Shown here piece after piece: positions 4,845 through 23,500 of a stretch of 64,000 nt of DNA. Numbering within the stretch: the stretch's first letter is position 1; the number at the start of each line of letters is the position of its first letter. The position numbers were made by a program, and so were the translations under genes. The notes below the pieces were generated by a model, which was not told where the DNA came from, did no database searches, and worked only from the letters and a program-made list of their open reading frames with translations. The stretch is taken from the NCBI GenBank assembly GCA_016199805.1, contig JACQGC010000004.1, positions 19,816-83,815 on the forward strand, in the 5' to 3' direction. Source of the DNA: Candidatus Nomurabacteria bacterium. Its GTDB lineage: Bacteria > Patescibacteriota > Minisyncoccia > Phycocordibacterales > UBA9973.

Positions 4845-4846
4845 AT

Positions 4847-5737: not shown

Positions 5738-6241
5738 TTATTTTTTAATTCCTAATAATTCTACTTCAAAGGTCAAAGTGGCGTTTGGAGGAATGACTCC
5801 GCCGGCGCCCGCGGCTCCGTAACCATCGGCTGGCGCTATCACCAAAGTTTTCTTTTCACCGACTTTCATTCCTACTATTCCTTTATCCCAGCCAGGAATT
5901 ACTTGTCCGGCACCCAAAGTAAAAATAAAGGGCTGGACGTGTTTGAATTTCGGGTCAACATTTGAATCGAAAACTGTGCCGTCTGCTAATCGTCCGGTGT
6001 AATTCATCGCAACCGTATCACCTGTTTTTGCCACTGTGCCGAGTGGAGCGGAACCCTCGGGAACTTGCCCTGTCGGAGCGGGAGTGGGAGTTGCGTTGTC
6101 TGCTACATTATTTACTGAGTTGTTTGTATTATTATTTACTGCCATATTTGGTTTATTTTTTATACTGATAAAAACTATAGCACCTATTAAAACCAGACAA
6201 ATTACCACTGCCAAAACTATATTCATCTTTTTATTTTCCAT
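5738..6241 (-). CDS. FKBP-type peptidyl-prolyl cis-trans isomerase, membrane-anchored
   Basis: GDTVAMNYTGRLADGTVFDS...GAGQVIPGWDKGIVGMKVGEKK...ATLTFEVELL FKBP signature; N-terminal TM helix. Confidence 0.9.
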   Translation of the reverse strand: MENKKMNIVLAVVICLVLIGAIVFISIKNKPNMAVNNNTNNSVNNVADNATPTPAPTGQVPEGSAPLGTVAKTGDTVAMNYTGRLADGTVFDSNVDPKFKHVQPFIFTLGAGQVIPGWDKGIVGMKVGEKKTLVIAPADGYGAAGAGGVIPPNATLTFEVELLGIKK

Positions 6242-6294
6242 TTAAATTAAAAAGTTAACTTCTAATAAATCTATTATAGCAAAAAGTAAGAACT

Positions 6295-7371
6295 TTACAC
6301 AATATTGACTTCGGGCTTTAATTCCAGCCCAAATTTTTCTTTCACCGAGGCTATGATTTTATTGGCCAATTCGATGATTTCTTCACCTTTTGCGCCACCG
6401 TGGTTTACCAAAACCAAGGCTTGCTTGTCGTGCACGCCGACATTCCCCATCCTTCTCCCCTTCCAACCGCATTGCTCTATCAGCCATCCGGCTGGAATTT
6501 TGTACTGTATTTCCCCCCTCTCCTTCGCAAGGAGAGGGGTTGGGGGTGAGGTCATATTTTCTTCTTCAAAGTGTGGAATTTCCGGATATTTTTTTTTGAG
6601 TATTTCCAATTCTGTTTTCGTCACAAAAACATTTTTAAAAAAGCTTCCGGCGTTGCCTATTATTTTCGGGTCGGGTAGTTTGCTTCTGCGTATCTCTGCC
6701 ACAGCGTCGCTGATATTTTTAAGTGTTGTTGTTTTGTTGGTTTTTTCCAAATAATCAGACAGAATCTTGTAAGAAACGTTTGGCTTTGGTGTCTTGCTTA
6801 ATTTTAAAGTCACTGCCGAAATAAAATATTTTCCTTTCAATTTATTTTTAAAAACACTATCCCTATAGCCAAGTTCGCATTCTTCACAGCTAAAAATTTT
6901 TTTCTCTCCGCTCTCAATCTCAAAAGTTTCCACACTAAAAAGAGTATCTTTGAGTTCGGCTCCGTAGGCGCCAATGTTTTGCATCGGCGCCGCACCGACT
7001 GTACCCGGAATGAGAGACAAGTTTTCAATTCCCCAATATCCTTTATCTACGGCAAACAACACAAGACCATGCCAGCTTTCACCGCCCATCGCTCTAATAT
7101 AAACACACTCTTTCCCGACCCCTGTCGGGACCCCGACTTTGGTCGGGGCTATACCTTTTACTTTATTTAAAATAACTATACCGTCGAAATCTTTTGTAAA
7201 AAGAACATTACTTCCACCACCCAAAAATATTTTTTTGTTATTTTTAAATTCAGGCGTCGCCAAAAGTTCTTTCAAGTCTTCTTCTGAATTTAACTCGACA
7301 AAAAACTTGGCGTTTACAGAAATACCGAAAGTGTTTAATTTAAGCAGATTGTAATTATTTTCTAATATCAT
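6295..7371 (-). CDS. murB: UDP-N-acetylenolpyruvoylglucosamine reductase MurB
   Basis: LGGGSNVLF, GIENLSLIPGTVGAAPMQNIGAYG and GNAGSFFKN motifs; start taken at MILENNYN (the ORF-track N-terminus overlaps the upstream gene); contains an in-frame palindromic insertion. Confidence 0.9.
   Translation of the reverse strand: MILENNYNLLKLNTFGISVNAKFFVELNSEEDLKELLATPEFKNNKKIFLGGGSNVLFTKDFDGIVILNKVKGIAPTKVGVPTGVGKECVYIRAMGGESWHGLVLFAVDKGYWGIENLSLIPGTVGAAPMQNIGAYGAELKDTLFSVETFEIESGEKKIFSCEECELGYRDSVFKNKLKGKYFISAVTLKLSKTPKPNVSYKILSDYLEKTNKTTTLKNISDAVAEIRRSKLPDPKIIGNAGSFFKNVFVTKTELEILKKKYPEIPHFEEENMTSPPTPLLAKERGEIQYKIPAGWLIEQCGWKGRRMGNVGVHDKQALVLVNHGGAKGEEIIELANKIIASVKEKFGLELKPEVNIV
6511..6553. repeat. 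palindromic element copy inserted in-frame in murB
   Basis: cccccctctcc-ttcgcaa-ggagagggg followed by ttgggggtgaggt; translated in murB as MTSPPTPLLAKERGEI. Confidence 0.65.
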
Positions 7372-7372
7372 A

Positions 7373-8647
7373 TCAATGTCCCAATGTAAAAAACATCGCC
7401 ACTGCCGCTGCCCCCATAAGCACAAAAGTACCCCAGACTAGTATGTTTGATACATTACCACTCTTGTGTTCACCCATGATTTTTTCGTTCCTGGCTATCT
7501 TGCCGATTATAAAGATAAGTGGAACGGCGGCTACGCCATTGAATACAGCGGTATAAACCAAGGCTTTAATCGGGTCTATGCCAATGAAATTTATCATCAA
7601 GCCGACAATGGTGGCGATAGTGATGACTCCATAAAATCCATGAGCTTTTTTTAATTTCAAATTCAAACTTTCTTTCCAATTTAAAGTTTCGGCGACGGCA
7701 TAAGAAGCGGAAGCGGAAAGCACCGGCACGGCCAGGAGTCCGAGCCCGATGACTCCGACGGCAAAAATCAACTTGGCTAAAAATCCCGCATATGGAAATG
7801 TATGCACCAAGGGCTCCAGGGCTTTGGCCGCGTCCGCGGCGGTGGCGATATTGGTTATGCCATGAGTGTTTAGGACTGTGGCAGCAACGACGATGATACA
7901 CCATGTGGCTATTTCCGAAGACAGCATCCCGACAAAATTATCAATTCTAAGATTTTTGAGAAAAGATTTTGTAATATGTGTCTCGCCGTGTTTTAAGAGG
8001 TGCTTAGCTCGTTCTTCTTCCACTTCTTCGGACGCTTGCCAAAAAAACATATATGGGGAAATAGTCGTTCCGAAGACACCAGTAATGATAAAAAGAAAAG
8101 CAAAACTCAATTCAATATGCGGAATGAAGGTGGCTTTTAATATCGTCAACCAGGGTTGTTTGACTAAAAATAAAGTCAAAGGATAAGCGAGCAAAGAAAA
8201 AGCCAGCCATTTCAAAATCTTGGCATATTTTTTATAGGAGATAAATATTTCCAGTGACAAAATCAGGGCGGTAAAAAAAAGTGTCAGCACTGTCAGGTTG
8301 ATTGGCAAAACAAGCTGCGCGGCGGCCGCCATCGCCCCCAAATCTGCTCCGATATTGATCGTATTGGCTAAAACAATAAGGACGACTGCCGCATAAAGCA
8401 TTTTCTTGCTGTAATTTTCTTTAATCACGGCGGCAATTCCTTTGCCAGTTACCGCCCCGATTCTGGCGCAAGCCTCCTGAATGGCGGTCATAAACGGCAA
8501 TAGCAATAAAGCTGTCCAGAGTTGCCCATAACCAAATTGCGAACCGGTCTGCGAATAAGTGGCGATGCCCGAAGGGTCATCATCCGCCGCGCCGGTAATA
8601 ATCCCCGGCCCCAGTTTTTTCCAAAAGCTTTTTCTCATATATTTCAT
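7373..8647 (-). CDS. NRAMP-family divalent metal cation transporter (MntH-like)
   Basis: GPGIITGAADDDPSGIATYSQ N-terminal signature resembling the Nramp GPGxLxxxAxxDPGN motif; 11-12 TM helices. Confidence 0.65.
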   Translation of the reverse strand: MKYMRKSFWKKLGPGIITGAADDDPSGIATYSQTGSQFGYGQLWTALLLLPFMTAIQEACARIGAVTGKGIAAVIKENYSKKMLYAAVVLIVLANTINIGADLGAMAAAAQLVLPINLTVLTLFFTALILSLEIFISYKKYAKILKWLAFSLLAYPLTLFLVKQPWLTILKATFIPHIELSFAFLFIITGVFGTTISPYMFFWQASEEVEEERAKHLLKHGETHITKSFLKNLRIDNFVGMLSSEIATWCIIVVAATVLNTHGITNIATAADAAKALEPLVHTFPYAGFLAKLIFAVGVIGLGLLAVPVLSASASYAVAETLNWKESLNLKLKKAHGFYGVITIATIVGLMINFIGIDPIKALVYTAVFNGVAAVPLIFIIGKIARNEKIMGEHKSGNVSNILVWGTFVLMGAAAVAMFFTLGH

Positions 8648-9639
8648 TTTAGCATTTTCTGCAATTTATATGCATTCCCATGTTTCAACATCCCCAAATA
8701 AGATTGAATCGTTGCTGGTTTCTGGCTATTTTTCACATTCTTAAGCATTCTCCTTTCCGTGCTAGTCCGCAAAACTCTATGCTCAGGAAAATGTACCCAG
8801 CCAAGAAAATCCACACCAGAAGCAATGGTTTTAATATAAACTTTATCTGGGTGCATTTGTAATTTTAATTTGTTTTCCAAAAATTCTTCCATTTTTTCTA
8901 ACACATTTTCTAAATACTTTTTGTCTTCACTCAAAACAACAAAATCATCAGCATATCGTATGTAATATTTCACTTTCAATTCTCTTTTTGCAAACTGGTC
9001 AAATTCATTCATATAGATATTTACTAAAAGTTGAGAAGTTAAATTACCAAGCGGTAGACCTTTTTGCATATTTACGCTATCGCGCATATATGCATCTGTG
9101 TAAAAACTGTCTATCACTTGTGAAAGTAGCCATAAAATATATATGTCAAAGACCGTCTTTGACAATATTCCTTTTAAGATTTGATGATCAATATTCGCAA
9201 AGAATTTTCGGATGTCGCATTTTAATACAAGGCAAGACCTTGTACTGTTTTTGGAAACTTTAAAAATATAGTCTTGAAATCTATTTATTGCTTTATGGGT
9301 GCCTTTGTTTACCCTGCAGGAATACGAATCATTTATAAATTTGGAGTCAAAATATTCATACAGTTCTTGGTAAATTAAATGGTGAAGCAATCTGTCTCGT
9401 ACTGTAGCTTTATGGATTATTCTTGGTTTGGGGTCAGAAATATTGAAAGCTGTGTAACCTCCGTGAGTATATGTTTTGTTTTTTAAATCATTATGTAGAT
9501 CGAGAATATTATCCATCAACTTAGCTTGAAATAGAATCACGTCTTTCCTATCTTTTTTATCATGTAAAAATTCCTGCCAAGCTTTGAGCAGTTTTTCTAC
9601 AGTTATGATATTATCGTAAGTATGCATAAATTGTTTCAT
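8644..9639 (-). CDS. DGR-type reverse transcriptase
   Basis: RT motifs DIRKFFANIDH, LPLGNLTSQLLVNIY (DGR-specific GxxxSQ motif 4), YADDFVV and FLGW thumb; no maturase or endonuclease domains; TR/VR pair adjacent. Confidence 0.85.
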   Translation of the reverse strand: MKQFMHTYDNIITVEKLLKAWQEFLHDKKDRKDVILFQAKLMDNILDLHNDLKNKTYTHGGYTAFNISDPKPRIIHKATVRDRLLHHLIYQELYEYFDSKFINDSYSCRVNKGTHKAINRFQDYIFKVSKNSTRSCLVLKCDIRKFFANIDHQILKGILSKTVFDIYILWLLSQVIDSFYTDAYMRDSVNMQKGLPLGNLTSQLLVNIYMNEFDQFAKRELKVKYYIRYADDFVVLSEDKKYLENVLEKMEEFLENKLKLQMHPDKVYIKTIASGVDFLGWVHFPEHRVLRTSTERRMLKNVKNSQKPATIQSYLGMLKHGNAYKLQKMLK

Positions 9640-9748
9640 ATTTCTCGGACCCCCCCCCGCAGCGCCTTCAGCGCTTTTAAAAACAAAAACCGCCTACTCT
9701 CTTTGGTTTAACATATATAACGATTTTCCGAAAGCGCATAGATACACC

Positions 9749-10006
9749 TTGGGTGGAAAGATTGAAGATTATTTCCTCGGGTTGTTGGAAAACATTTTCA
9801 TTTCTATTTATCTACCGCCGGAAACTAAAATTCCCCGACTTATTATCGCAATTTCTAAACTTGATGGAGTTAAGTTTTTTCTACAAATCGCTTGGGAAAA
9901 TAAATGTATTAGTAATGAAAAATATTCCCAGCTTTCAGAAAAATTAGATGAAATTGGAAAAATGCTTGGTGGTTGGAAAAAAGGCCTAGAAAAGAAAACT
10001 CCCTGA
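9749..10006 (+). CDS. Avd-like four-helix-bundle protein (short or truncated; TTG start)
   Basis: C-terminus SEKLDEIGKMLGGWKKGLEKK and LPPETK segment match the TIGR02436/Avd family pattern (..FPKDE.. / ..EEVSKMLNGL..); about 30 aa shorter than typical and on the strand opposite the RT. Confidence 0.4.
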   Translation: MGGKIEDYFLGLLENIFISIYLPPETKIPRLIIAISKLDGVKFFLQIAWENKCISNEKYSQLSEKLDEIGKMLGGWKKGLEKKTP

Positions 10007-10030
10007 ACTTAGTCAGGGAGAAACATTCTT

Positions 10031-10147
10031 AGTTTCGGAACGACGATTCGATGAGCGTACTTGGCATTCCAGACATTGCTGTTCTCAAGCGGATTGACGT
10101 TCAAGTTCAGACGACCATCGTCATACACGTTGACGTTGGCAACGAAG
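10031..10147 (-). repeat. DGR template repeat (TR), 117 nt
   Basis: Near-identical to 10523-10639; all 18 mismatches fall on TR adenines (minus strand); AAC-rich. Confidence 0.85.
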
Positions 10148-10453
10148 ATTTGTAGGATAAGCCATCTATTCCACCGCCAGCCTGAGCATAACTTAATATC
10201 AAAGACTGTGCTGTATATTATTTGAGAGCGTAAAACTCTTCCAACTCACCCCACCAACTTTTATGTTTTTTTGTTTTAAAAAAGAATTCACTCTTCCACG
10301 AGACATATCCGGCGAAATTCTCAAATTGATTTTTAAGCAATCATGTCCCAAAGCCTTGACCGTGAGCATTTCCAGATTGCGGATTTAGTATATATTAAAA
10401 TTTAAAAAGATAAAGGGTCAAAGGGAAAAAGTTTCAAAGTGACAAATGAAAAA

Positions 10454-10502
10454 CCGTTCCTCCAGGTCGGCTTTTCACCTTACTGATGGAACGGTTTGAT
10501 GT
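10454..10502 (-). promoter_or_regulatory. inverted repeat/hairpin immediately downstream of VR (candidate DGR target-recognition structure)
   Basis: ccgttcctccagg ... ctgatggaacgg (10 of 12 complementary) with a ~19-nt loop, starting ~20 nt after the target stop codon. Confidence 0.5.
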
Positions 10503-10518
10503 TGAAACAGAAACAAAG

Positions 10519-11199
10519 TTACAGTTGCGGAACGACGACCCGATGAGCGCACCTGGCACCCCAGACATTGCTGAACTCAAGCGGATCGACGCCCAAGTCC
10601 AGACGACCATCGCCACACACGCTGACGCCGGCAACGAAGAAGCCGCCGTTTTCCCCCTCAAACAGGAAGAAGGTACCGTAGCCCTCTGCACGAAGATACT
10701 CGCGGTTGCGAGGATCTCGACAGAATGCCACGATTTGCGACTCCTGCCAGCAGAGACGTTTCAGATTCTCGCCGAAGCCTCCGAAGACCTGTGCGTAAGT
10801 ACCGTCTTTGATCATGTAGTAGACGGCTAGGACGGTTTTTTTCGTTGCCTTGCAGACTCCACGCTTCGCGGCTCCGTAGATGCCCGCATTGAAAACGTCA
10901 TTTGCTTCTGCCAGCGTCTCCTTCCCGTCGGTTTCCGCGAGCTCAATTGTGCGATCGGCAAACAAACGCTTGAGCCGCCCGACCACGTTCTCCGCGAGCT
11001 CGGCGAGAATAGTCTTCACCGTAGCTTTCACCACTGCCGCGATTTTATCACCCTGAGTCAATACCCGCTGAAAGTTATCGCCGTGGAGCACCCCGTTGGC
11101 GGAGAGCTCGATTACTGCCTCGTCTACTACCTTGCGGGTCGCAGACGCCACAACCGTCATCAACTGCTCTTTTCTTTCGAGTGTAATCATGCTGGGCAT
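10519..11199 (-). CDS. DGR target protein with C-terminal variable region (CLec/FGE-like fold inferred)
   Basis: VR occupies the last ~39 codons (..GYGTFFLFEGENGGFFVAGVSVCGDGRLDLGVDPLEFSNVWGARCAHRVVVPQL); higher GC than flanking genes. Confidence 0.8.
   Translation of the reverse strand: MPSMITLERKEQLMTVVASATRKVVDEAVIELSANGVLHGDNFQRVLTQGDKIAAVVKATVKTILAELAENVVGRLKRLFADRTIELAETDGKETLAEANDVFNAGIYGAAKRGVCKATKKTVLAVYYMIKDGTYAQVFGGFGENLKRLCWQESQIVAFCRDPRNREYLRAEGYGTFFLFEGENGGFFVAGVSVCGDGRLDLGVDPLEFSNVWGARCAHRVVVPQL
10523..10639 (-). repeat. DGR variable repeat (VR) at the 3' end of the target gene
   Basis: 117-nt match to the TR with 18 substitutions, exclusively at TR-adenine positions (A to G 15, A to T 2, A to C 1); ends 2 nt before the stop codon. 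Confidence 0.85.
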
Positions 11200-11336
11200 G
11201 TTATCATCCTTTTCTGCTAGATAACTACGTATCCCGTAGTCATAGCCAGGAAACGCCTAAAATTAAGCATCTTTTGGCTATGACTACTATTTTGCAAGTA
11301 ACTTTTTAAGGAACAATATATCTTTATATAATACAC

Positions 11337-11930
11337 TTAATTTCTCATTAAGTCAATACTTCCGTCTTTATGCAATTTTATCAGTTTGGAGGCTTTGTTT
11401 TTGATTGTGCCGCCGTCTATATATAGGTCAACACTGTAACCAAAGTATTTTCTAGCATCTTCCATGGTTTCACACGGCGGAATAGTTTCCAGATTGGCCG
11501 ATGGCGCAATGAGTGGTCCAGTTTCCAAAAGCAAATCCCGCAGAGCTTGTGGAGCGGGCAAACGAAAGGCTAAAGTATTTGTGCCACGATGCAAATACTC
11601 CAAGGCCGGGTCGGGACAATCCAAAACAATACTGACAGCTCGCTCGTGGCACATATCAGCCATGACTGATATGTGCCACAGCTCTTTTAATTTATTTTTT
11701 TGCTCTTGTGTTAAAATTACAGAAAACTTTTCAAGTTCACTCGTGTCTCCAATCAAAATAATGCAGGGTTTGGTTGGATTTCTTTTGCGGATAGTGTAAA
11801 TGCGATTGACTACAAATTCTGCTTGCGCCCGGCCGACCATGCCATAGATGGTATCCGTCGGCATAATCACCACACCATCTTCTTGTAAAATTTTTATTAA
11901 ATTTTTATCGTTCCAAATATTTTCTTGCAT
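11337..11930 (-). CDS. tsaC: L-threonylcarbamoyladenylate synthase TsaC/YrdC
   Basis: VIMPTDTIYGM YrdC/Sua5 signature, ~197 aa. Confidence 0.85.
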   Translation of the reverse strand: MQENIWNDKNLIKILQEDGVVIMPTDTIYGMVGRAQAEFVVNRIYTIRKRNPTKPCIILIGDTSELEKFSVILTQEQKNKLKELWHISVMADMCHERAVSIVLDCPDPALEYLHRGTNTLAFRLPAPQALRDLLLETGPLIAPSANLETIPPCETMEDARKYFGYSVDLYIDGGTIKNKASKLIKLHKDGSIDLMRN

Positions 11931-11931
11931 T

Positions 11932-12375
11932 TTATTTTAATTCCAAACTTCTGTGACCTTTTTCTTTATGCGAAATATAGATGTATCGGGCATTGGATGG
12001 GATAACACCTGAAACATTTTCCGGCCACTCAATGAAAACTATGTGTTCTTTATTGCCGATAATTTCTTCCCAACCCAGATGTAATAATTCTTTTTCATTT
12101 TTCAAACGATATGCATCAAAATGATATAAAAATTTATATTTTTTTGATTTAATCTTGTATTTTTTAAAAATAACAAAAGTCGGGCTTTTGATTTTATCTT
12201 TTAGGCCAAGGTGTTTGCCGACTGCTTGCGTAAAAGCCGTCTTGCCCGCGCCCAAATCTCCGGACAAGGCCACCACTAAAGCGCCTTTTTGCTTGGCGCT
12301 GGTTTTTAAAATTTTCTCCAGAAATATCTTGGCTATTTCCCCGGTTTCTTTGGTGTTTTTTGAAATCTTTTTCAT
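11932..12375 (-). CDS. tsaE: tRNA threonylcarbamoyladenosine biosynthesis protein TsaE
   Basis: P-loop ALSGDLGAGKTAFTQAVGK and PTFVIFKKY; adjacent to tsaC. Confidence 0.85.
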   Translation of the reverse strand: MKKISKNTKETGEIAKIFLEKILKTSAKQKGALVVALSGDLGAGKTAFTQAVGKHLGLKDKIKSPTFVIFKKYKIKSKKYKFLYHFDAYRLKNEKELLHLGWEEIIGNKEHIVFIEWPENVSGVIPSNARYIYISHKEKGHRSLELK

Positions 12376-12447
12376 CCCAGTACTAAAATTTTAATTTATA
12401 AACCCTATCTTTATTACCCGTAATCAAAAATTTAGTACGGGACAGGT
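12376..12447 (-). promoter_or_regulatory. conserved bipartite upstream element (canonical copy) abutting the tsaE start codon
   Basis: cccagtactaaaattttaattt...cccgtaatcaaaaatttagtacgggacaggtt; ends near-identical to the nusG copy. Confidence 0.55.
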
Positions 12448-12487: not shown

Positions 12488-12880
12488 ATGAGAAATAATA
12501 TTGCGAAATTTTTCGATAAATTGGAAATTATGATACGGGGGAAATTGAGCCATTACCCTATTTTATACGCACTCGTAGGCGGAGTGGGCATCGTGCTATT
12601 TTGGCGCGGCGTCTGGCACACCGCCGATGACATGAATATGAGTAGTATCCTGTCCTTAATATTGGGATTTTTTATCCTCGTTTTGACCGGAGTGTTTGTG
12701 GCGGAATTTATCGGAAACAAACTCATTATGACCGGCCTCATCGGTGAAAAAAAATTGGAAGAAAAAGAAGAGGGTGAAATCGAAACGGAAGAAAGCCAAT
12801 TGAAAAATCTGCAAAGCACTTTAAACCGACTGGAAAAAAAGTTGGAACATATTGATGAAGAAATAGACGAAAAGAAATAA
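12488..12880 (+). CDS. hypothetical membrane protein with acidic coiled-coil C-terminus
   Basis: Two TM segments followed by a KKLEEKEEGEIETEESQLKNLQ coiled-coil-like tail. Confidence 0.4.
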   Translation: MRNNIAKFFDKLEIMIRGKLSHYPILYALVGGVGIVLFWRGVWHTADDMNMSSILSLILGFFILVLTGVFVAEFIGNKLIMTGLIGEKKLEEKEEGEIETEESQLKNLQSTLNRLEKKLEHIDEEIDEKK

Positions 12881-13108: not shown

Positions 13109-13143
13109 GAGGCGCCAACGATCCGTTGGCGCCTCGCTTTTTA
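13109..13143 (+). terminator. rho-independent terminator
   Basis: GAGGCGCCAACG-ATC-CGTTGGCGCCTC perfect 12-bp stem followed by a T-run. Confidence 0.7.
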
Positions 13144-13383: not shown

Positions 13384-14262
13384 CTAGTTGTCGTTGCAGG
13401 CTGCCAGTTTTTTTCTCATCTCCGCCTGTGAAATTGTTGGGATTCTCAATTTTGTGTGTTTATCCAAGTGGTCATGTTTGTTTTTTGGATTGTCTGCAAT
13501 GTTATCTTCAAAACAATACACACAACCAACCCGGCGTATGGTTGTATCACGCCACTCAACAACCTCTCCATAATACACGAAGGGTTGTTTCGGCTTCGGA
13601 CGTAATTTCTCTATCTCCTCGTTAGCAGTTTTCAATCTTTCATTCAACGCATCAACTGCTTCCTCTTTGTCAATTTGATTTTCCTTTTCCAGGTGCGGAA
13701 TAAAAGAAAACCAGAAATAAGCCAGAACAGCCGTGGCTCCGAACAAGCAACCGAGACCTATTCCCCAGAACATACTTGAAATTACGGATTGGTCCGCCCC
13801 CTTGAGAAGAAGGTGAAGTTTACCGTTCACCTCCCCCAGATGTTTATTTTTGTCTTGTAGATTGTTGTTGTCAGCGCCGGGAGATTGCCCTTGTTTCTCT
13901 TCGTCCGCAACCTCGGTTTCTTCTTTCTTGTCTTCCAACGTCGACATCGCCGTCTCTTGTTTTTGGAATGCTTTTATGTCCTTAAACAAGAGGAGTGTGT
14001 CCTGCTGAACTTTCTCTGACGGTTTTTCCGCCTTGCAGTTGTCGGGAACAAACATAGTGTCCCCAACGTGAATTTTCGTGAGCCGAAATGACGGCACGGC
14101 GCTCAGCCACATCACTTCGGATGTCCAGAGAACACTGCCACATTCTCTACTGGCGACATCTACAATACCGGCGTCACCTTCTTGAAACATTGTTTTTCTT
14201 ACCGGAGCGGCCGCGCAAAGCGCGGCCCCCACGATGCAAATCATCAGCAATCTACCCGTCAT
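13384..14262 (-). CDS. island-encoded membrane protein (signal peptide, central TM, Cys-containing C-terminus)
   Basis: MTGRLLMICIVGAALCAAAPV signal-like N-terminus; WGIGLGCLFGATAVLAYFWFSFI TM; coiled-coil EEAVDALNERLKTANEEIEKLR; immediately downstream of the FtsZ-like gene. Confidence 0.45.
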   Translation of the reverse strand: MTGRLLMICIVGAALCAAAPVRKTMFQEGDAGIVDVASRECGSVLWTSEVMWLSAVPSFRLTKIHVGDTMFVPDNCKAEKPSEKVQQDTLLLFKDIKAFQKQETAMSTLEDKKEETEVADEEKQGQSPGADNNNLQDKNKHLGEVNGKLHLLLKGADQSVISSMFWGIGLGCLFGATAVLAYFWFSFIPHLEKENQIDKEEAVDALNERLKTANEEIEKLRPKPKQPFVYYGEVVEWRDTTIRRVGCVYCFEDNIADNPKNKHDHLDKHTKLRIPTISQAEMRKKLAACNDN

Positions 14263-14270: not shown

Positions 14271-15716
14271 CTAACTTTTTGGTCTTAGTCTCGTCAGGTC
14301 GTGTGGAATGTATATTTCAACTTCTGTCGCCTGAGCTATCGCCCGCTGAACTTTTTCCGCTATTTCTAAGCGAAAAAGTGACGGATTCCCAGTGTAGAGA
14401 GAAAGTTCTTGGTAACGCTTAGCAAGTTCCGGAGAAGCCTCAACCTCTTGCTTGTCACCCTTGGCGTTGATGACCACTTCAAACCGAACCTTGGGTTGTT
14501 CGGCGACCACGGCGCCATTCGTCTTCTGCGGCGCAGGCGGCGCAACTTCCAGAGACACCATTGGTCTGCCCACGATGGCGGGAACCCCGGTCTCCGGCGT
14601 CATTGGTTTACCCATAGCGAAAACCGAACCCTCTTTCTTTTCGTTTGCGTCGGGTAGGTTTCTGGGCGGGTCTTTCGCTACCGCCATTAGCCTGACCCTT
14701 TTTACACCCTTCTCCACGCCCCTTTTCTTTATGCCGAACTTCAACTCATACGGTTCACCGTGAACCATCTTTTTCCTGATACACTCCTGTATGGCCTCAC
14801 GGTCTTGAATGGGCCACCCTTTATCTGACTCATACCAAAGGACTACCCTCAGGGCGTTCTCAATAATCCTCGGATTGAGACATGGAGCGCCGCTAAACAA
14901 AACGTTATCTATGTCACCCAGGCTGTTGTTTGTGGCATCGAAAGATATGGGCAGAGCGTGGTTGCCCGTAGCCAATAACTTTTTCAAGTCGCTCAGGTCC
15001 AGGTCCCTGACATCCCCCCAATCCTGGAGCAACGATTTGTAAAAATCCAAGATCCAGAACAGGGACGTCTCGTTTATTTTCTGCCAGGCCTCTTCGTCGT
15101 CAATTGTTTTGTCCTGCCACCTCTCATTCTCAATGAGCGTGACCGTGCAATATTTCAAGATCCGCTCGTACATGTCTCCGCCGTGCCTCACCCGCTCCGG
15201 CCCCTCACCCACACTAGGCATTGCGAGGATGGCGTAAGTGGGTATATTCATCTTCTGGAGCATTTCTGCTACCGGTGGCACTGCGCCACAAGTACCGCCA
15301 CCCAAACCGGCGACCAAGCAGACACTATCATACTTGGCAAAAAGGTCTTTAAGGAGTTTTGTTTTTTCCTCTTCCTTGACCATCTCTTCGCCTTTGTTCG
15401 CATCGCCGCCAGCTCCCCAACCTTTTTCTCCCAACTGAAGTTTAAGAAAACGGTCCTCAAGACGAGTCCAGCCGAGCATATGACCACAATCTGCTTCTTC
15501 GCTTTGGTTGACTTCAAAACGATTCTTCAACTGGCTCTGATTGGACTCCATAGCCAAAACAGTCAGGTGGGGATTCATCTCTGGATCATATTTTCTGAGC
15601 ATTGCCGCAATTGCCGTCGTGCCGCAACCGCCGAATCCCACAACTAACAATTTTGCTTTTACTTTGGGAGCAATTACTTCCTCTTTTTTTTCAACCTTCA
15701 CGTCTTTATCTGCCAT
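14271..15716 (-). CDS. divergent FtsZ/tubulin-superfamily GTPase
   Basis: T1 loop VVGFGGCGTTAIAAM, T3-like GWGAGGDANKGEE, T4 signature VAGLGGGTCGAVPPVAEM (cf. FtsZ GGGTGTG); alignable to E. coli FtsZ over the GTPase domain; long divergent C-terminal half. Confidence 0.8.
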   Translation of the reverse strand: MADKDVKVEKKEEVIAPKVKAKLLVVGFGGCGTTAIAAMLRKYDPEMNPHLTVLAMESNQSQLKNRFEVNQSEEADCGHMLGWTRLEDRFLKLQLGEKGWGAGGDANKGEEMVKEEEKTKLLKDLFAKYDSVCLVAGLGGGTCGAVPPVAEMLQKMNIPTYAILAMPSVGEGPERVRHGGDMYERILKYCTVTLIENERWQDKTIDDEEAWQKINETSLFWILDFYKSLLQDWGDVRDLDLSDLKKLLATGNHALPISFDATNNSLGDIDNVLFSGAPCLNPRIIENALRVVLWYESDKGWPIQDREAIQECIRKKMVHGEPYELKFGIKKRGVEKGVKRVRLMAVAKDPPRNLPDANEKKEGSVFAMGKPMTPETGVPAIVGRPMVSLEVAPPAPQKTNGAVVAEQPKVRFEVVINAKGDKQEVEASPELAKRYQELSLYTGNPSLFRLEIAEKVQRAIAQATEVEIYIPHDLTRLRPKS

Positions 15717-15730: not shown

Positions 15731-16096
15731 TTACTCTTCGGATACAACTTCAAAACTTTGTTGCGCTTTGTACTTGAGATACGACGGGTCGCTGAATATC
15801 TCCAGAAGACGTTGCTGGATAAATGCCTTCACTTGCTCTTCGTCTGAATCACCCAAATCGGTGAAGACAAAGAACAGAAGCATTTCTACCGACCGCGTCA
15901 ATTTATCTCCTGACCCGCCAAGCTCAAGCGTCACCCCATGCTCAAACCTCGTCCTAATGTTGGACGCACTTGTTTCAAGACTTTCTTTGACGTCGGCAAT
16001 AATTGCTGCTCCGACGCTCATCAATTCCTCCCTCTCTTCGTCGGTAATTCTTCTCGGGTTATTATCTACGTCCGCGCTCCAGCTCCCCACGAACAC
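15731..16096 (-). CDS. island-encoded small acidic protein
   Basis: 121 aa, Asp/Glu-rich, directly upstream of the FtsZ-like gene on the same strand. Confidence 0.35.
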   Translation of the reverse strand: MFVGSWSADVDNNPRRITDEEREELMSVGAAIIADVKESLETSASNIRTRFEHGVTLELGGSGDKLTRSVEMLLFFVFTDLGDSDEEQVKAFIQQRLLEIFSDPSYLKYKAQQSFEVVSEE

Positions 16097-16220
16097 CCCC
16101 TTTCTTTTTACTTTTAATTCTCTTCTGTTTTCAACGAACTCGCAACGAACTAGAAAATGCCCATTGTAAAATTCTGTCTTGAGAATATCAAAACAGTTAT
16201 GAAAATATTATGAAAATAAA

Positions 16221-16295
16221 TGGGGTGGTTATCGGGGGTTGAACCCGAACTAAAAGCTCCACAAGCTTCTGTGCTGCCGCTACACCATAACCACC
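16221..16295 (-). tRNA. tRNA-His (anticodon GTG) with encoded G-1 and CCA
   Basis: Cloverleaf with 8-bp acceptor stem (G-1:C73), anticodon loop TTGTGGA, T-loop TTCAACC, 3' CCA encoded. Confidence 0.8.
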
Positions 16296-16320
16296 ATGTA
16301 CAAAAAACAACAAAACACTG

Positions 16321-16404
16321 TGCTCGGGGGGAGATTTGAACTCCCATGCCCTTGCGGGCGCTACCACCTCAAGGTAGTACGTCTACCAGTTTCGCCACCC
16401 GAGC
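16321..16404 (-). tRNA. tRNA-Leu (anticodon GAG), class II with long variable arm
   Basis: GCTCGGG acceptor, anticodon loop TTGAGGT, long variable arm GCGCCCGCAAGGGCA, T-loop TTCAAAT. Confidence 0.75.
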
Positions 16405-16979: not shown

Positions 16980-19900
16980 CTATTTCCCCAATATCATCAT
17001 GGCCTTGGTCTTGGGACCAATGAGTCCATCGGACACAAGCCCATGATTCTTCTGCCACTGTTTGATGACAGCGATAGTCTTTGGCCCAATTTTGCCGTCT
17101 AAAACCAAACCGAGTTTCATCGTGTCATTTAGATATCTTTGCAGTTCTTTAGCGGTATCGCCTATACTTCCTAGTTTAAGAGTAGTGAAACCGAAATTAT
17201 ACATCAGCGTAGGATTGATGGCAGAAACATTTATGGTGTTTGTGGTCGCAATCGCAGTTTTGGCGGCAACATTTCCCGAACAAGATTGTCCCGTGGCAGT
17301 ACTAAAGCCCGTGATTCTAGAACCACAACCTGGCATAGATATCGGAGTAGGAGGTGTATAGCTTCCTCCCCCTCCACCACCGCCACTACTTGGCACATAA
17401 ACCAAGGTAAAGTTCGCGGTAATATTTTTATCCGCATCCATAGAAACAGTCATTGGATTAGCTGAAGAGGTGATATCTCCAGACCAATCAGAGAATGCGT
17501 ACCCGGAATTTGGAGTTGCAGTGAGAATGATAGAACTTCCAAAATCATAGTTTGCCTGGTCTGGGTTTTTGGCAACGGTGCCATTGGTGGAGAGAATGGA
17601 TATTATATAGGTGATGATATTATCTTGGATTTGAGTTGTGGCGGAACTCAAGGAAGCAGAACCGGTGCCACTTGCAGAAGAAGGGGTCACTTGGAATTTT
17701 AAATATTGTCCAATATCGGAAGAAGTTAATATATATGTAATAGCGGTTGCGCCACCGATGGCAGTATATGTTCCTCCCGAGGAAGAGGAACGAAGCCATG
17801 CATATGTTGTGCCGGATTCGGGCAAACTATTTGGGTCAGAAAATGCGTATGAACCTGTCAGTGTTTGGCCGATTGTTTTTGTGCCAGAAATGGTGACATT
17901 GGTAGCAGTAGGTAAACCGAAAGATTCTGTCGCTTGAGATTTAATTACATATGATGCTTTGTTCCCTGCTTCGTCTTTAAGTATAACATTAAAGTAATAA
18001 GTGGTGGTGGAAGAAAGACCGGAAACAGGAAGAGTGTTGATGTCTGTGGTGTAAGTGTTGAGTGGTGTGCCATTGGCTTCAATATTGGTCACCGTATCGA
18101 TATTATTGGAAGATGATTGATACACCCTGTATTGTAGAACTCCCTGAGCCGAGACATCGTCTGTGCCTTTAGTCCAATTTAAAGTAAGACTACTTGTAGT
18201 AACACTTGCAGTGGTAATGACGCCACTTGCTCCCGGTGTGGGATTTACTAAATCACCCGCTGAACTAACCGCGACCGGAGCATTTAAACTCGTGGAAATA
18301 TTTCCGTTGGCATCTTTGGCCCAGGCATAAAGAGTTTTTGAGCCATAAGTGGAGAACGTGTAATTGGCAGGAGCACTTCCTGTCCAACCGGCATTTCCTG
18401 CCAAGGGCGCCGTAGGTGACTCAGTCAGAAGATATCCGGTGACGCCAATATCGTCCGTGGCGGTAAAAGAAGATACGGAAACAGTCAATGAACTGGAAGT
18501 AGCGGGAATTGAGAAAGCAGTTACAGTGGGGGCGACATCGTCATACACATATGGTCCTAGGTCCCAATCATAGTTGGCGCGGTCAAGCAATTGAATATTG
18601 GTATAGCTGGCCGGACTCAAACCCACATTGTATGGAACGCCAAGATTTGTCCCGCTATTGATGAGAGAAGAACCGGGGGAAAGTCTGTAATCACTTGTGT
18701 CTGTGTATGTTTTTGTCCACGACAGACCACCATCAGAAGTCGTATGCCCATCGGAATAAATACCTGCCGCGATGGAAGATTGGGTAACAAAAGTTCCTCC
18801 GAGATTTCTTATTTCATCCACAAACCAAATCAATTTTTGGTTTGTCACATTAACGGCATCGGTAAGGTGCCAAAACATTCCTATGTAACCACCTGCGGCG
18901 GCGGCCAATAAATAAGTGTGACGAGCCACTTTACGAATATCGGCTTCAGTACTAAATCCATTCATCGCCCAAGACATTGCTTGCCCGGACAACATATATG
19001 GGTGGATTGATGGCATATACATATACCCCCCACCGGCTGACCGGGCACTGGTAAATGTGGAAGAAATCGTTGGCATATACGCTTCAGCCCCCGCATCGGA
19101 CCATCCTCCTCCATATGCAAAAGAAACTGGAACTGTTCCGATGTTGGATGCAATCCAACCAGCTGAATCTAAAATTTCTTCATCTCTATATGCTGACATC
19201 AGCATATTTACAACGTATGGAAAGGTTGTGCTGGTTTGGTTATCCAATGCCTTCAGACGCACAGGGTCATTCATATTTGTTGTATTGCTGATGGTCCACC
19301 CTTTTCCGGTGGCAGAAAGTCCGACGCATGCATTCGCCACATTGATAGTTTTCTTAAAATCACATAATGTTTTGTCTGTTACTGACCAATCAATCAGAAT
19401 ATTATTTTCTGGGTTACCACTACTAGCCAGACTGAGGGTGTGAGCGGTCCTGTCTATGGTTACTGTATTAGTTCCGGAATTTGTTGTTGATACAGTAAAC
19501 ATAGAAGTTTTGGTGACATCCGAATGAGACCAACTGTGCGAACCAATTTCTATTCCCCTAGCAGGAAGAGATGACAAAATAGTTTTACCTCCGGATGAAA
19601 TTCCTGTAAGATTTGTTAAATACGCCAAGAAAGGGATAGTGTTTGTTCCAAAGGCCGCATCAAATGCATCTGCCAATCCGCTGGAATACGCGGGGATACC
19701 TGCATAATCATCTCCATCAATAGACAAAACAATTTTTACTGCAGGAAAAGGTAAAGCTTTAAAGTTTGGAACCGTAGAATAATTATGTCCTCCATCGGTT
19801 ATGGTTCCACTTCCGGAAAAATTACCAGCTATAAAAGAAGCAGTTGTAACTCTATTATTGCCGAGAATAAGACTATAATCATAATCAATAGTGTTGCCAG

Positions 19901-20549
19901 TGGCAACGGCAACTCCGGCCCCGCCTGTAAAAACTCCCGTGCCATAACCATTTCCTTCAATGATTGAATTGCGAACAGTTGTGATTGCCCCTGTGCCAGC
20001 CATAGAAATTGCCGAACCGGCACATTGGGTAATCAATGAATTGTTTAGAGTCACCGTTGCTGAGTTGGCAACAGACAAACCAATTCCGGCGGCACGGCGT
20101 ATTATTACATTAGATAAAGACAATGAATCGGAAGCTCCAACTGATACGGTCCCTTGAAAATCCAAATACTCCGCCTTGATTCCGGTTCTACCTGTAACCA
20201 TATTTATCGCATAACCACTGGAACCAGGAATAGCCGGAAGTGCTCCGGTATCAGCGACATCATATAGTGTATAAGTTATACCATTTTGGCTAGGAGATAT
20301 TGACTGAGCCCATGAACAACCACGTTTAAACATAACCGTGGCATTCAATCCAGCTGAGGTGTTAGCTTTGGTAATATTTTTCCAGGCCGTTGCAGGAGAT
20401 GTTCCATCTCCTGTATCATTTGCAGCATTGCAGTCAACATAATACGTTGTGCCACCAGCATGAACCATCTTTCCGAAAGAAAACAAAAAGCAACAGAAAA
20501 CCAAAAATACAAATATTTTTTCTGTTTTATTGATTTTAATGCGAAACAT
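16980..20549 (-). CDS. giant secreted protein: right-handed beta-helix + polysaccharide deacetylase (NodB)-like + Ig/FN3-like repeats + C-terminal peptidoglycan-binding domain
   Basis: Signal/TM N-terminus; beta-helix repeats (NSIIEGNGYGTGVF..GNTIDYD..); LSIDGDDY and IGSHSWSHSD NodB-like motifs; C-terminal LNDTMKLGLVLDGKIGPKTIAVIKQWQKNHGLVSDGLIGPKT PG_binding_1-like. Confidence 0.65.
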   Translation of the reverse strand: MFRIKINKTEKIFVFLVFCCFLFSFGKMVHAGGTTYYVDCNAANDTGDGTSPATAWKNITKANTSAGLNATVMFKRGCSWAQSISPSQNGITYTLYDVADTGALPAIPGSSGYAINMVTGRTGIKAEYLDFQGTVSVGASDSLSLSNVIIRRAAGIGLSVANSATVTLNNSLITQCAGSAISMAGTGAITTVRNSIIEGNGYGTGVFTGGAGVAVATGNTIDYDYSLILGNNRVTTASFIAGNFSGSGTITDGGHNYSTVPNFKALPFPAVKIVLSIDGDDYAGIPAYSSGLADAFDAAFGTNTIPFLAYLTNLTGISSGGKTILSSLPARGIEIGSHSWSHSDVTKTSMFTVSTTNSGTNTVTIDRTAHTLSLASSGNPENNILIDWSVTDKTLCDFKKTINVANACVGLSATGKGWTISNTTNMNDPVRLKALDNQTSTTFPYVVNMLMSAYRDEEILDSAGWIASNIGTVPVSFAYGGGWSDAGAEAYMPTISSTFTSARSAGGGYMYMPSIHPYMLSGQAMSWAMNGFSTEADIRKVARHTYLLAAAAGGYIGMFWHLTDAVNVTNQKLIWFVDEIRNLGGTFVTQSSIAAGIYSDGHTTSDGGLSWTKTYTDTSDYRLSPGSSLINSGTNLGVPYNVGLSPASYTNIQLLDRANYDWDLGPYVYDDVAPTVTAFSIPATSSSLTVSVSSFTATDDIGVTGYLLTESPTAPLAGNAGWTGSAPANYTFSTYGSKTLYAWAKDANGNISTSLNAPVAVSSAGDLVNPTPGASGVITTASVTTSSLTLNWTKGTDDVSAQGVLQYRVYQSSSNNIDTVTNIEANGTPLNTYTTDINTLPVSGLSSTTTYYFNVILKDEAGNKASYVIKSQATESFGLPTATNVTISGTKTIGQTLTGSYAFSDPNSLPESGTTYAWLRSSSSGGTYTAIGGATAITYILTSSDIGQYLKFQVTPSSASGTGSASLSSATTQIQDNIITYIISILSTNGTVAKNPDQANYDFGSSIILTATPNSGYAFSDWSGDITSSANPMTVSMDADKNITANFTLVYVPSSGGGGGGGSYTPPTPISMPGCGSRITGFSTATGQSCSGNVAAKTAIATTNTINVSAINPTLMYNFGFTTLKLGSIGDTAKELQRYLNDTMKLGLVLDGKIGPKTIAVIKQWQKNHGLVSDGLIGPKTKAMMILGK

Positions 20550-20553
20550 AATT

Positions 20554-23500
20554 TTATTGCACCAAAGAATACATCAAGGCTTTTGTTTTTTCACCGACGA
20601 CACCGTCTGCAAGCAATCCATGACTTTTTTGCCATTTCATAACAGCGGAAAGTGTTGTTGTGCCAAACTTTCCGTCGAGAACCAACCCGGCTTTTGATGT
20701 ATCATTTAAATATCTTTGCAATTCTTTAACCGCATCTCCCGCACTCCCTTTTTGTAGAGTGACGGTACCTAAATTATATTTTTGGGTACTAGTTGAAGGA
20801 ATTGGTTTTGTGGGTTTTGGCGGAATTGGAGTTGTATCGCCATTTTTAGGAGTGGAAACCGGTTGTGGAGTCGGAATGTCAACAGGAACAGGAGCAGAAA
20901 TAACGCCGGTTGATATTTCATAGACGTGGGCTTGGTACGGAGTAAAGGTGTCGGTAAAACCATTTCCGGAAACAGTTAGGTTTCTATTCTCACCATAAAC
21001 AGACACCAGTGAAGGTGTCGTGCTCCAAGTAAAAGTGACTGGAACAGTTGCATTGGTATTATTGGAAGCAATCAGATATCCTCTGCCACCTGCATATTTC
21101 ACTCTGGTGTGAATACTGCTGTTTGAGCTGAAAGAAAGCAGGTCATTCTTATCAATGGAAGACAAGGCCGGTTGGAGAGAATTGAGTTCTGTGGTTACGG
21201 CTTTGAGGTTGTTGAAATTATCAACTTTGGCCTGACACCACGAGAGCGAACCGGAAGGCGAATGAGCCGCATCGGAACCATCACAGATATACGCCAAAGC
21301 CCCAACACCCAAACTCCAATACACTAGCCCATCGCTCCCCTCGGCAATTGCCATATAGGACATATTGCGAAGTTCCGCTTGGGTCGGCCAGCGACCCTTG
21401 GAAGTAAATTTAAAGAATTGGATGACAGTGGCAACAGGTCTGCTGTTTTGCACGGCATCTTTTGTGATTTTTGTCTGATTAGCCACTAGAGAATAATCAT
21501 AACCGCTAGCTGGTTCTGCTCCGTACAAAGCGTATGGGTCCATGGAAAGCAGGTCAACGGTGTCTCGCCAGTAAGACATTGAGTTTGGAGTATTCCCTGC
21601 GCCAAAAGAAAGACCGATAGGGTCAAGATTTCTCAACTTGTTGTAATAAGTAAACATATCCGGCGCCAAATAAGACACACATTCGTCCATATTGTATTGA
21701 CCGGCAAAACCAGGATATTGGCCCCGAGCAACAATATCGGCATCGCTGAAAGTTTTTAACCAACCATCATCATAAGTACTGGTTGAAAAACAATTGGCGT
21801 TGGAAACAAGAGATATCCCATGTCTCTGTAAAACATTCATCAGCGGAAAGGCAGCGCTGTTTGGCATATTACCCAGCCAATAATTAAACCAGAAATTTAC
21901 CGGCAGTTCAAATAATCGCTTGGTAGAGGTGAGCGTGTTTTCCCAAGTGGTTTCGCTCATTGAGTATCCACCACCGGAATCATACACACCGAGCAAAAAC
22001 TTTGGCTGACCGTTAAATAAAATCTGATTATTTTGATTGAAGGAAATAGGAATGGAATTTCTGACAGAGCCGGAAACTTTGGAAATTCTATAAGACGGAT
22101 ATTCGTACAAAGCTACACTATTTGAACTGCGCAATAATTTAAACCGCGCCAAATAAGTATGGCCATTTGTCATGCTGGAGCCACTTAAAGTAGCTGTAAA
22201 ATCGGCAGATGATGAGTATGATTGGTTTGCAACCACGGAACCGCTGGATTCGTCTGTCAGAGTAATTTCCGGTTTCCAATCGCCAAGCGTTGTCCCAGCC
22301 GGAGGATTTATCTTTACATCAAATTTTATGGTCTGAGACTGGTCGTCAAAAAGAAATCCTTTATAATTTGGATAGAGCATAAATACATCCATGGGTGACT
22401 GATATTCTTCTTGTATCGCCATATCGTCAAACCAAGCCTGACCTGCCGGTTCATTCCAGCTTTCCAAAACAAATTTCACACTTGAAGAATCCTGATTGAT
22501 GACAACATTTTTTAACTCAACATATGTCCAATCATTGACTCCATTCAGACATTTACCCACCCCGTTTCCGGCACTGCCTGCGTTTACACTAATACGAACA
22601 CAGGGATGAATAGTAGTATCAACCAAGTTTGTTTTTATCCAACCGCTGATACGATAAGATCCTTTTTTCAAAGAAAGAGTCTGCCTGGCGGATTCCGTAT
22701 AGGGGAAACTGGGAGCGTCTTTCATACTATAACTACTTGCTCCGCCATGAACTGTAGAAGAATCAACCAGAAAAGCGGACGAACCCGACCAATTTGCCGG
22801 TTTACCACTGGATAATGTTTCAAAACCGGAGTTAAGTAATAAATTTGGACCGAGGCTAGCCATTGGATACCACATCAACCCTCCAGCCACCAATCCATTG
22901 ATTGGAGCAGACGGAGTCGGAGCATTAAATTCCATCATGTCACTTGCGCTACTACAACCTGGGTCATTCGGATAATCTATTTTGCCATCCAAGTCATTAT
23001 CAATGCCATCAGAACATTGTGGAAGGCTTGAATCTGGAAGAACAACGACGGGCGGAGTCGGGGTGCTGACTGGCGGTATATTTGTAGTTGGCAAGGTTGT
23101 CGTTGGAGTTGTCGGATTGTTGTTCGTAGGGGTTGTGGTAGGCGGTGGCGTGTTGCCGGTATTACTAATCATCACGGAAGCATCGTCAAACCAAGCTGTG
23201 CCATTTGGGTCTCCATACATTTCTACAACAAAGTAAGCCGGAGAATCATTGGTGATTGTGACATTCTGCACCTGTAAATATTGCCAGTCGCTGGCACCTT
23301 TTATGATTTGTGATGACTTACATCCATTAACGCAGGCATTTGGGTATACTCCGGTATTAAAATTTATTCTCAAACCACTACCAACCGTTGATGCTACCCC
23401 ATCCATTTTCACCCACATGCCAATATTGTAAACACCCTTTGGAAGGGTGCCGATAGTTTGCATTGCCGACTGGGAATAAGGTATCAAGTTTGCATTAACG

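Follow-up and report, generated by a model that had tools for sequence, protein, structure and literature searches.

Paralogues of FtsZ that took on new partners have repeatedly opened new cell biology, as CetZ did for archaeal cell shape and TubZ and PhuZ for DNA positioning. Bacteria of the Candidate Phyla Radiation (CPR, or Patescibacteria) account for a large share of bacterial diversity and combine very small cells with an epibiotic lifestyle; to our knowledge, almost nothing is known about their cytoskeleton. Here we describe an FtsZ-like gene and its two operon partners in a 64-kb stretch of DNA from Candidatus Nomurabacteria, a taxon within the Parcubacteria/Patescibacteria group. This stretch, referred to below as the window, is part of a 214-kb contig. 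The FtsZ-like protein exactly matches a record named hypothetical protein HY311_00555 from Candidatus Nomurabacteria bacterium (NCBI look-up). The three genes, hereafter the cassette, are as follows:

15731..16096, minus strand: small cytoplasmic orphan protein of 119-121 aa, first gene; an open reading frame (ORF) with homologues upstream of the FtsZ-like gene in all ten loci that were read
14271..15716, minus strand: FtsZ-like gene; ORF of 481 aa
13384..14262, minus strand: type-I membrane protein of 292 aa, third gene; recognised from the ORF, hydropathy and invariant columns

The closest described systems fall into several groups. TubZ/RepX and PhuZ share with the present protein the superfamily fold and a small gene upstream, and in TubZ and PhuZ the C-terminal tail is used for partner binding. 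Membership in this group is contradicted by the lack of relatives among phage, plasmid and viral records, by housekeeping flanks and by a small protein that is acidic in 8/10 loci. When a profile of the present family was compared with PDB sequences, it favoured FtsZ (4e-52) over CetZ (1e-18), which speaks against membership in the CetZ group, and gave still weaker matches to RepX (3e-13), PhuZ (3e-6) and BtubA (4e-4). Two further groups, FtsZl1 and FtsZl2, were described by Makarova and Koonin in 2010 and proposed to act in membrane remodelling (PMC2875224). FtsZl1 proteins are ~1000 aa long with a long coiled coil, belong to Tubulin_2, have no recognisable T6-H7-T7 region or C-terminal domain, and are encoded with vWA, GTPase and OmpA operon partners; FtsZl2 proteins are proteobacterial, carry a ~300-aa mixed alpha/beta C-terminal region and have no conserved neighbours (PMC2875224). 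Like FtsZl1, the present protein is a non-canonical member of the FtsZ superfamily in a conserved operon with membrane-associated proteins. Unlike FtsZl1, it is 481 aa long, retains a full FtsZ core, comes from a CPR host and has other partners, and a Pfam scan gave no Tubulin_2 (PF13809) match on it. From FtsZl2 it is set apart, by description, through its CPR hosts, its ~130-aa C-terminal extension and its strictly conserved operon.

A divergent second FtsZ of CPR bacteria, with PIS34807.1 and PIR58248.1 as examples, was noted by Santana-Molina et al. 2023 (PMC9871819). As with the present family, these are extra, long-branch FtsZ-type proteins in Patescibacteria (PMC9871819). They keep GGGGG(S/A), GGGTGSG, N-(L/I)-D-F-(S/A)-D-F and a (V/T)P(T)(F/I)LR tail. 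In a comparison of the family hidden Markov model (HMM) with one of canonical FtsZ, the two examples score -129 and -119 bits, on the canonical side, whereas the family model outscores the canonical one by 367 bits on the protein from the window. Given these canonical loops and canonical-side scores, we rejected an identity of the two groups. The hallmark motifs of the present family were absent from the portions of the PMC9871819 sequence files that were searched.

Placement within the FtsZ superfamily

Over residues 23-202, the FtsZ-like protein matches the Pfam Tubulin family (PF00091; 52 bits, cutoff 33), and its closest PDB sequences are FtsZ, from E 2.6e-13 downward, with CetZ and RepX far behind. 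Both results place it in the FtsZ superfamily, in agreement with the original prediction, whose quoted GTPase-core peptides (VVGFGGCGTTAIAAM, GWGAGGDANKGEE and VCLVAGLGGGTCGAVPPVAEMLQKMNIPTYAILAMP) are all present in the translation of the 14271..15716 ORF. Canonical models fit much less well. The NCBIfam ftsZ equivalog model TIGR00065 reaches 69.4 bits against a curated cutoff of 295.2 and matches the N-terminal half only, and Pfam FtsZ_C (PF12327) was not reported on the protein at E<=1. In precomputed Pfam assignments, family members carry PF00091 only, whereas canonical FtsZ matches carry both domains. The protein was originally proposed to be distinct from division FtsZ, and the profile comparison qualifies this in one respect: FtsZ is the best match and the T7 loop is intact, yet the TIGR00065 cutoff is missed. 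By sequence, the protein belongs to the FtsZ superfamily and differs from canonical division FtsZ.

To delimit the family, we searched 1.84 billion representatives exhaustively by HMMER, using a profile of three sequences, and scored the best 150 proteins with the two HMMs. The search found 47 representatives at E<=1e-30, after which the matches merge into canonical FtsZ near 1e-20. Among the best 150, the difference between the family and the canonical score is bimodal, with one group at +67 to +449 bits, another at -61 to -628 bits and almost no intermediates. About 87-95 of these 150 representatives are family members, and the full-length ones have a median length of 480 aa. Family size was judged from this exhaustive search, since a word-indexed search (2-4 members) misses rows of the query alignment and understates it. 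All named family records come from Patescibacteria, including Nomurabacteria, an uncultured Saccharibacteria metagenome-assembled genome and Parcubacteria GW2011_GWA1_59_11 (KKW48099.1). A scan of 185,579 GTDB species-representative genomes, with patterns that were derived from six sequences and are specific to the sub-family, found a single locus, in the Saccharibacteria genome; sub-family pattern scans of IMG/VR and JGI metagenome contigs gave no match. Most of the 90%-identity clusters that were looked up are singletons.

Taken as a whole, the family is discrete and separate from canonical FtsZ, FtsZl1/2, TubZ, PhuZ, CetZ and the divergent CPR FtsZ of Santana-Molina, and it appears restricted to CPR bacteria. 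No description of it was found in the searchable literature, though one may exist outside that literature. Several members are annotated as FtsZ by NCBI and JGI and others as hypothetical proteins; both 'cell division protein FtsZ' and 'hypothetical protein' are misleading labels for them. We regard the family as a new family-level variant within the FtsZ superfamily, with a conserved and previously unannotated pair of partners, rather than as something categorically new.

Domain anatomy and catalytic loops

The architecture of the FtsZ-like protein was derived from Pfam matches, alignments and an AlphaFold2 (AF2) model. The model was built from 46 family sequences and replaced an earlier three-sequence model of poor confidence (predicted local distance difference test, pLDDT, 58). 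The following parts were delimited:

15105..15656, minus strand: N-terminal GTPase domain, residues ~21-204 (Pfam Tubulin at 23-202; AF2 pLDDT >90; alignments)
15615..15638, minus strand: T1 loop GFGGCGTT, residues 27-34 (alignments; family consensus G.GGCG.N)
15282..15308, minus strand: Cys-containing T4 loop GLGGGTCGA, residues 137-145 (alignments)
14667..15104, minus strand: helix H7, T7 loop and FtsZ-type C-terminal domain, residues 205-350
14985..15005, minus strand: T7 (synergy) loop DLDLSDL, residues 238-244 (46-sequence family alignment)
14505..14666, minus strand: Pro/Ala-rich linker, residues ~351-404, of variable length across the family (AF2 and family alignments)
14274..14504, minus strand: family-specific C-terminal module, residues ~405-481 (AF2 and alignments)

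The 46-sequence model has an overall pLDDT of 87 and a predicted template-modelling (TM) score of 0.74, with residues 20-350 mostly above 90. When it was compared with the PDB by Foldseek, FtsZ chains stood alone at the top, with ~335 aligned columns and TM-scores of 0.83-0.85 (normalised to the FtsZ chain). In this model the two-domain FtsZ fold is complete, comprising the GTPase domain, H7, T7 and the C-terminal domain, with residues 351-481 as the sole addition. Aquifex FtsZ, too, is aligned by phmmer as far as residue 355, with its NVDFADV opposite DLDLSDL at T7. An AF2 model with a check of the T7 residues, suggested alongside the original prediction, therefore recovered the FtsZ fold with the T7 aspartates D240 and D243 intact, and the earlier statement that a ~250-aa C-terminal half bears no resemblance to FtsZ is wrong, as phmmer, AF2 and Foldseek all assign residues 205-350 to H7, T7 and the FtsZ C-terminal domain. 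The Pro/Ala-rich segment reported at the same time does exist; residues 358-403 within it have a pLDDT <50 and are predicted to be disordered. Confidence rises again to ~92 over residues 410-464, in the C-terminal module, which comprises two strands, two helices and the tail ...ATEVEIYIPHD (family consensus ETG..FD(V/I)P). A PDB search found no relative of this module.

Compared with canonical FtsZ, the nucleotide-binding and catalytic loops of the FtsZ-like protein read as follows:

T1: GGGGGN in canonical FtsZ; GFGGCGTT in the FtsZ-like protein
After H1: no insert; a 4-residue insert, DP..NPH
T2: NTD; ESN in the closest sub-family, with NTD kept in more distant family members
Between T2 and T3: no insert; a family-specific insert of ~30 residues (63-90) with a near-invariant W83
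T3: GLGAGANP; GWGAGGDA
T4: GGGTGTGA; GGGT-CGA, one residue shorter
T6: N165; N197
T7: N207, D209 and D212; D238, D240 and D243

The E. coli FtsZ sequence in the comparison alignment serves for numbering only; with this numbering, D240 and D243 align with D209 and D212. The glycine loops were said from the outset to be altered. This holds for T1 (GFGGCGTT) and T4 (GGGTCGA), except that T4 is not merely substituted, being one residue shorter than its canonical counterpart. The short, Cys-containing form is confined to the closest sub-family (8/46 scorable representatives); the other 38 have T4 of canonical length, and most family members retain the tubulin signature GGGTG(S/T)G. Elsewhere conservation is strict. 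Residues G29, G32, G101, G103, N197, D240, D243 and G251 are invariant in the 46-sequence alignment, whose members are 20-40% identical to the query, and the GAGG motif of T3, the T4 glycines, the T6 Asn and the T7 aspartates are invariant or nearly so across the family. In FtsZ and tubulin, T7 acts solely across the longitudinal subunit interface. Since T7 works only there and is strictly conserved in the family, we infer that the protein polymerises and hydrolyses GTP; among the available arguments, this is the best one.

Other features separate the family from canonical FtsZ as well. Canonical FtsZ has its own T1 without Cys and lacks the DP..NPH and W83 inserts. In addition, the FtsZ-like protein carries a folded module of ~65 aa before the terminal peptide and is encoded in its own operon with two partners and not beside ftsA. 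The consensus tail of the family, ETG..FD(V/I)P, is similar to the C-terminal peptide of FtsZ (D-(I/V)-P-x-F-L-R), and some distant members end in FLRR-like tails.

The conserved cassette and its possible role

Ten cassette loci were read: the window, L001, L003, L005, L006, L007, L008, L009, L010 and L011. This neighbourhood survey, another check suggested with the original prediction, found the same three-gene cassette in 10/10 loci. The order is always small protein, FtsZ-like protein and membrane protein, with each component alignable throughout, and the arrangement persists when identity between the FtsZ-like proteins has fallen to ~23%. The downstream membrane protein noticed in the first reading of the sequence is thus present, at 13384..14262, and is a conserved operon partner in every locus. 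Intergenic gaps in the window are 14 nt (small to FtsZ-like) and 8 nt (FtsZ-like to membrane) and carry AGGAGG and GGAG ribosome-binding sites. Two putative signals bracket the cassette:

16163..16191, minus strand: promoter-like site TTGATA-17-TACAAT, with 10/12 matches (a consensus match only), ~65 nt upstream of the cassette
13109..13135, no strand: 12-bp G+C-rich hairpin, ~250 nt downstream of the third gene

The hairpin is a likely terminator, common to the cassette and to a convergent ORF at 12488..12880.

The small protein has no match to any Pfam, NCBIfam, PDB, PADLOC or PHROGs family; a MarR winged-helix protein (E 0.015) was the single borderline hit of its profile. Its true start is probably the GTG at 16090, which agrees with a 119-aa call on the Logan contig L004. 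The isoelectric point (pI) is 4.4 in the window, and the protein is acidic to near-neutral (pI 4.3-6.3) in 8/10 loci. Only in L009 does it have a hydrophobic segment: this Parcubacteria homologue (7589-8020) starts with a hydrophobic N-terminal helix (hydropathy 2.07) and is basic, with a pI of 10.7. The L011 homologue is also basic (pI 10.5). It is thus possible that distant sub-families have a small partner that is anchored in the membrane or differs in its properties.

The third protein begins with a signal-peptide-like segment ending in an A-x-A-type site and has a single central transmembrane helix (~165-188). Its invariant residues are C41 and C76 on the outside and C247, C250, H265 and H269 in the cytoplasmic tail. 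The outside part carries a G..V.PD.C motif and a region that is LysM-type (beta-alpha-alpha-beta) by pattern only, followed by a coiled coil, whereas the cytoplasmic tail resembles a C2H2 zinc knuckle, again by pattern. Pfam, NCBIfam and PDB-profile searches gave clear support for the coiled coil alone. Single-pass proteins with one end on a polymer and the other facing the wall are well known, ZipA and FtsN for FtsZ and RodZ for MreB being examples. The cassette likewise combines a single-pass membrane protein with a putative cytoplasmic filament protein. This is an analogy and not a homology: the third protein has no sequence or profile similarity to ZipA, FtsN or RodZ, is oriented N-out and C-in, and combines a C2H2-type tail with an outside coiled coil and a Cys-pair domain.

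Wall and division genes are often found near the cassette. In L008 and L010, its neighbours are rplJ-rplL on one side and mraZ-rsmH-ftsL-ftsI-murE on the other, with mraZ directly downstream of it, while MurB, FtsW/MurG or a D,D-carboxypeptidase is encoded within ~7 kb in the window, L001, L003 and L009. Altogether, core wall or division genes occur within ~7 kb of the cassette in 6/10 loci. Neither ftsA nor ftsZ adjoins it in the window or in any of the ten loci, of which two abut the mraZ end of the dcw cluster. A gene of the window at 30885-32036 encodes a PilM-type actin-like ATPase of type IV pilus assembly and not FtsA; the whole 64-kb window yielded no ftsA.

The explanation we favour, with a probability of roughly 0.55, is that the three genes form an operon for a filament system of the FtsZ type that is accessory, tethered to the membrane and specific to Patescibacteria. 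The FtsZ-like paralogue would bind GTP and polymerise head-to-tail, so that D240 and D243 of one subunit would complete the GTPase site of the next. The flexible Pro/Ala linker would present the folded C-terminal module, with its D-(V/I)-P-type end, as a docking element in the manner of the FtsZ C-terminal peptide. The most likely receptor would be a part of the co-transcribed type-I membrane protein, namely its putative C2H2 zinc-binding tail in the cytoplasm; the coiled-coil stalk and presumed disulfide-bonded, LysM-like head of this protein could reach the cell wall. The filament would in this way gain a link through the membrane to the envelope. The small and mostly acidic upstream protein might act on the polymer as a soluble modulator or adaptor, or serve as a bridge in the assembly. 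Because peptidoglycan and division genes are often near the cassette, a role in envelope remodelling or division-related morphogenesis is suggested rather than one in DNA segregation. With its compact operon, mutable catalytic residues and predicted linkage across the membrane, the cassette offers a directly testable system, and it could show how CPR cells divide or attach.

A number of observations weigh against this explanation. Polymerisation and the proposed contacts are inferred from sequence features, and the LysM-like and C2H2 database matches are not significant (E 1.3 and 0.4-0.045, respectively). The C-terminal D-x-P motif occurs in only 30/79 full-length representatives when a strict regular expression is used. 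The proximity to wall genes exceeds chance expectation by a rough estimate, the enrichment being a rough count only. No canonical ftsZ was found in the 64-kb window or in the 220 kb formed by the window and the loci. Finally, T1 GGCGTT, T2 ESN and the shortened Cys-containing T4 could weaken nucleotide binding in the sub-family.

A more far-reaching form of the accessory filament system, which we put forward only tentatively, is a second Patescibacteria cytoskeleton, separate in function from the divisome, in which a type-I zinc-finger protein would wire a fast-evolving FtsZ-derived filament across the membrane to the wall or surface, and the small orphan protein would tune it. If true, such a cytoskeleton could shape, constrict or polarise ultra-small cells, for example in budding or host-cell attachment. 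The rapid divergence of the cassette, fastest in the membrane-spanning protein with its exposed domain, would in that case be a sign of adaptation where these cells meet their host.

A different account holds that the FtsZ-like protein is the sole division FtsZ of its organism, pushed off the canonical profile by fast CPR evolution, with its neighbours as lineage-specific divisome parts and the membrane protein as an anchor that replaces or supplements FtsA. The complete FtsZ fold with its intact T7, the position of FtsZ as closest structural and profile relative, and the annotation of several members as FtsZ are all compatible with it. So are the cassettes immediately upstream of mraZ in L008 and L010, the finding that neither the window nor the loci contain a canonical ftsZ, and the FLRR-like tails of some distant members, which resemble the peptide that binds FtsA and SepF. 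We nevertheless consider this account unlikely. The score distribution is bimodal and almost devoid of intermediates. Moreover, Paceibacteria (order UBA9983_A among them) and other CPR classes as a rule possess a canonical FtsZ in which T1, T4, T7 and the C-terminal peptide are standard, and its presence in Paceibacteria makes an extra paralogue the simplest reading of the FtsZ-like protein. Between two syntenic genomes, NusG and L11 share 86-92% identity but the cassette proteins only 26-46%, a pattern not typical of an essential division protein. The same conclusion is favoured by the predominance of singletons among the 90% clusters examined and by the one locus seen in the 185,579 species-representative genomes with sub-family-specific patterns.

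An improbable reading makes the protein a degenerate, non-polymerising pseudo-GTPase of FtsZ fold, or a GTP-regulated scaffold, acting as a monomer or dimer with its membrane partner. The altered T1, T2 and T4 of the sub-family, with a one-residue deletion in the tubulin signature loop, would fit such a protein, as would its rapid sequence evolution, and the same possibility was raised for FtsZl1 by Makarova and Koonin (PMC2875224). Against it stand the nearly invariant T7 aspartates, T3 GAGG, T4 glycines and T6 Asn, the canonical-length T4 of most members, and an AF2 core with pLDDT >90 in an FtsZ-like conformation. A TubZ/PhuZ-like module for DNA segregation or a mobile element, with the small protein as TubR-like adaptor and the FtsZ-like protein as motor, is very improbable: it can draw on a gene order reminiscent of tubR-tubZ (small protein, then tubulin-like GTPase with a functional C-terminal tail), the borderline MarR match, the raised G+C content at third codon positions (GC3) of the cassette, the adjoining tRNA genes in the window and short direct repeats seen by eye upstream, but similarity to TubZ/RepX and PhuZ is much below that to FtsZ, phage, plasmid and IMG/VR records contain no matches, the flanks are housekeeping genes without integrase or replication genes, two syntenic genomes hold the cassette at the same position, the small protein has a pI of 4.3-6.3 in 8/10 loci, and the secreted or transmembrane third protein has no TubZRC counterpart.

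Genomic surroundings and composition

Downstream of the cassette, positions 1-12400 of the window are syntenic with positions 6600-14683 of L001 (JGI metagenome contig 3300045240). The shared genes encode Sua5, MurB, FKBP, SIMPL, NusG, L11, Vut_1 and F420 ligase, and their products are 56-92% identical, with NusG and L11 at the upper end (86-92%). In contrast, identity within the cassette is 46% for the small protein, 37% for the FtsZ-like protein and 26% for the membrane protein. Given this difference between the cassette (26-46%) and its syntenic neighbours (56-92%), we conclude that inheritance has kept the cassette in a fixed place and that its evolution is much faster than that of the genes around it. 

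Composition also distinguishes the cassette. Its GC3 is 0.50-0.56 in the window against 0.36-0.41 in neighbouring genes, and 0.50-0.60 against ~0.36-0.47 across the window and L001. The GC and GC3 of the cassette exceed those of the neighbours also in L001, L005-L007, L009 and L011, with a GC3 of 0.85 in the FtsZ-like gene of L009. Codon usage, recombination or transfer are possible causes. Recent horizontal transfer, considered on the basis of the raised GC3, was weakened as a candidate by L001, where the position of the cassette and its GC3 offset are the same; as GC3 is raised in both syntenic genomes, recent transfer need not be invoked. A defence or phage origin was rejected after PADLOC, PHROGs, phage and plasmid searches returned nothing; the records covered, 50,697 from phages and 72,556 from plasmids, gave no matches, nor did IMG/VR contigs. 

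On the upstream side of the cassette, tRNA-His(GTG) and tRNA-Leu(GAG) (16221-16404, minus strand) lie between it and rplS (L19, 16447..16929). Beyond rplS, the region 16980-23805 encodes two very large secreted proteins of 1189 and 1083 aa. The 1189-aa protein contains Pfam beta-helix, InlB B-repeat and AIR9 Ig-like domains and a C-terminal PG_binding_1 domain, and the C-terminal sequence of the 1083-aa protein closely resembles the PG_binding_1 end of the first. PG_binding_1 proteins are also found near the cassette in L007 and L008. On the downstream side, the convergent ORF at 12488-12880 (plus strand) encodes a small membrane protein with an acidic coiled-coil tail. A possible counterpart in L001, a 124-aa gene (6170-6544, minus strand), occupies the same relative position and is likewise convergent to the cassette.

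A diversity-generating retroelement occupies 8644-11199; compared with the syntenic L001, it is an insertion between Sua5 and Nramp/MurB. Its reverse transcriptase (RVT_1) is encoded at 8644..9639 on the minus strand. The template repeat (10031-10148) and the variable repeat (10523-10640), the latter at the 3' end of a 226-aa ORF (10519..11199, minus strand, GC 0.56), are 85% identical over 118 nt. All mismatches (18/18) fall at a plus-strand T, that is, at a coding-strand A, as expected for adenine-specific mutagenesis. A bAvd-like ORF of 85 aa (9749..10006) lies on the opposite strand, which is unusual.

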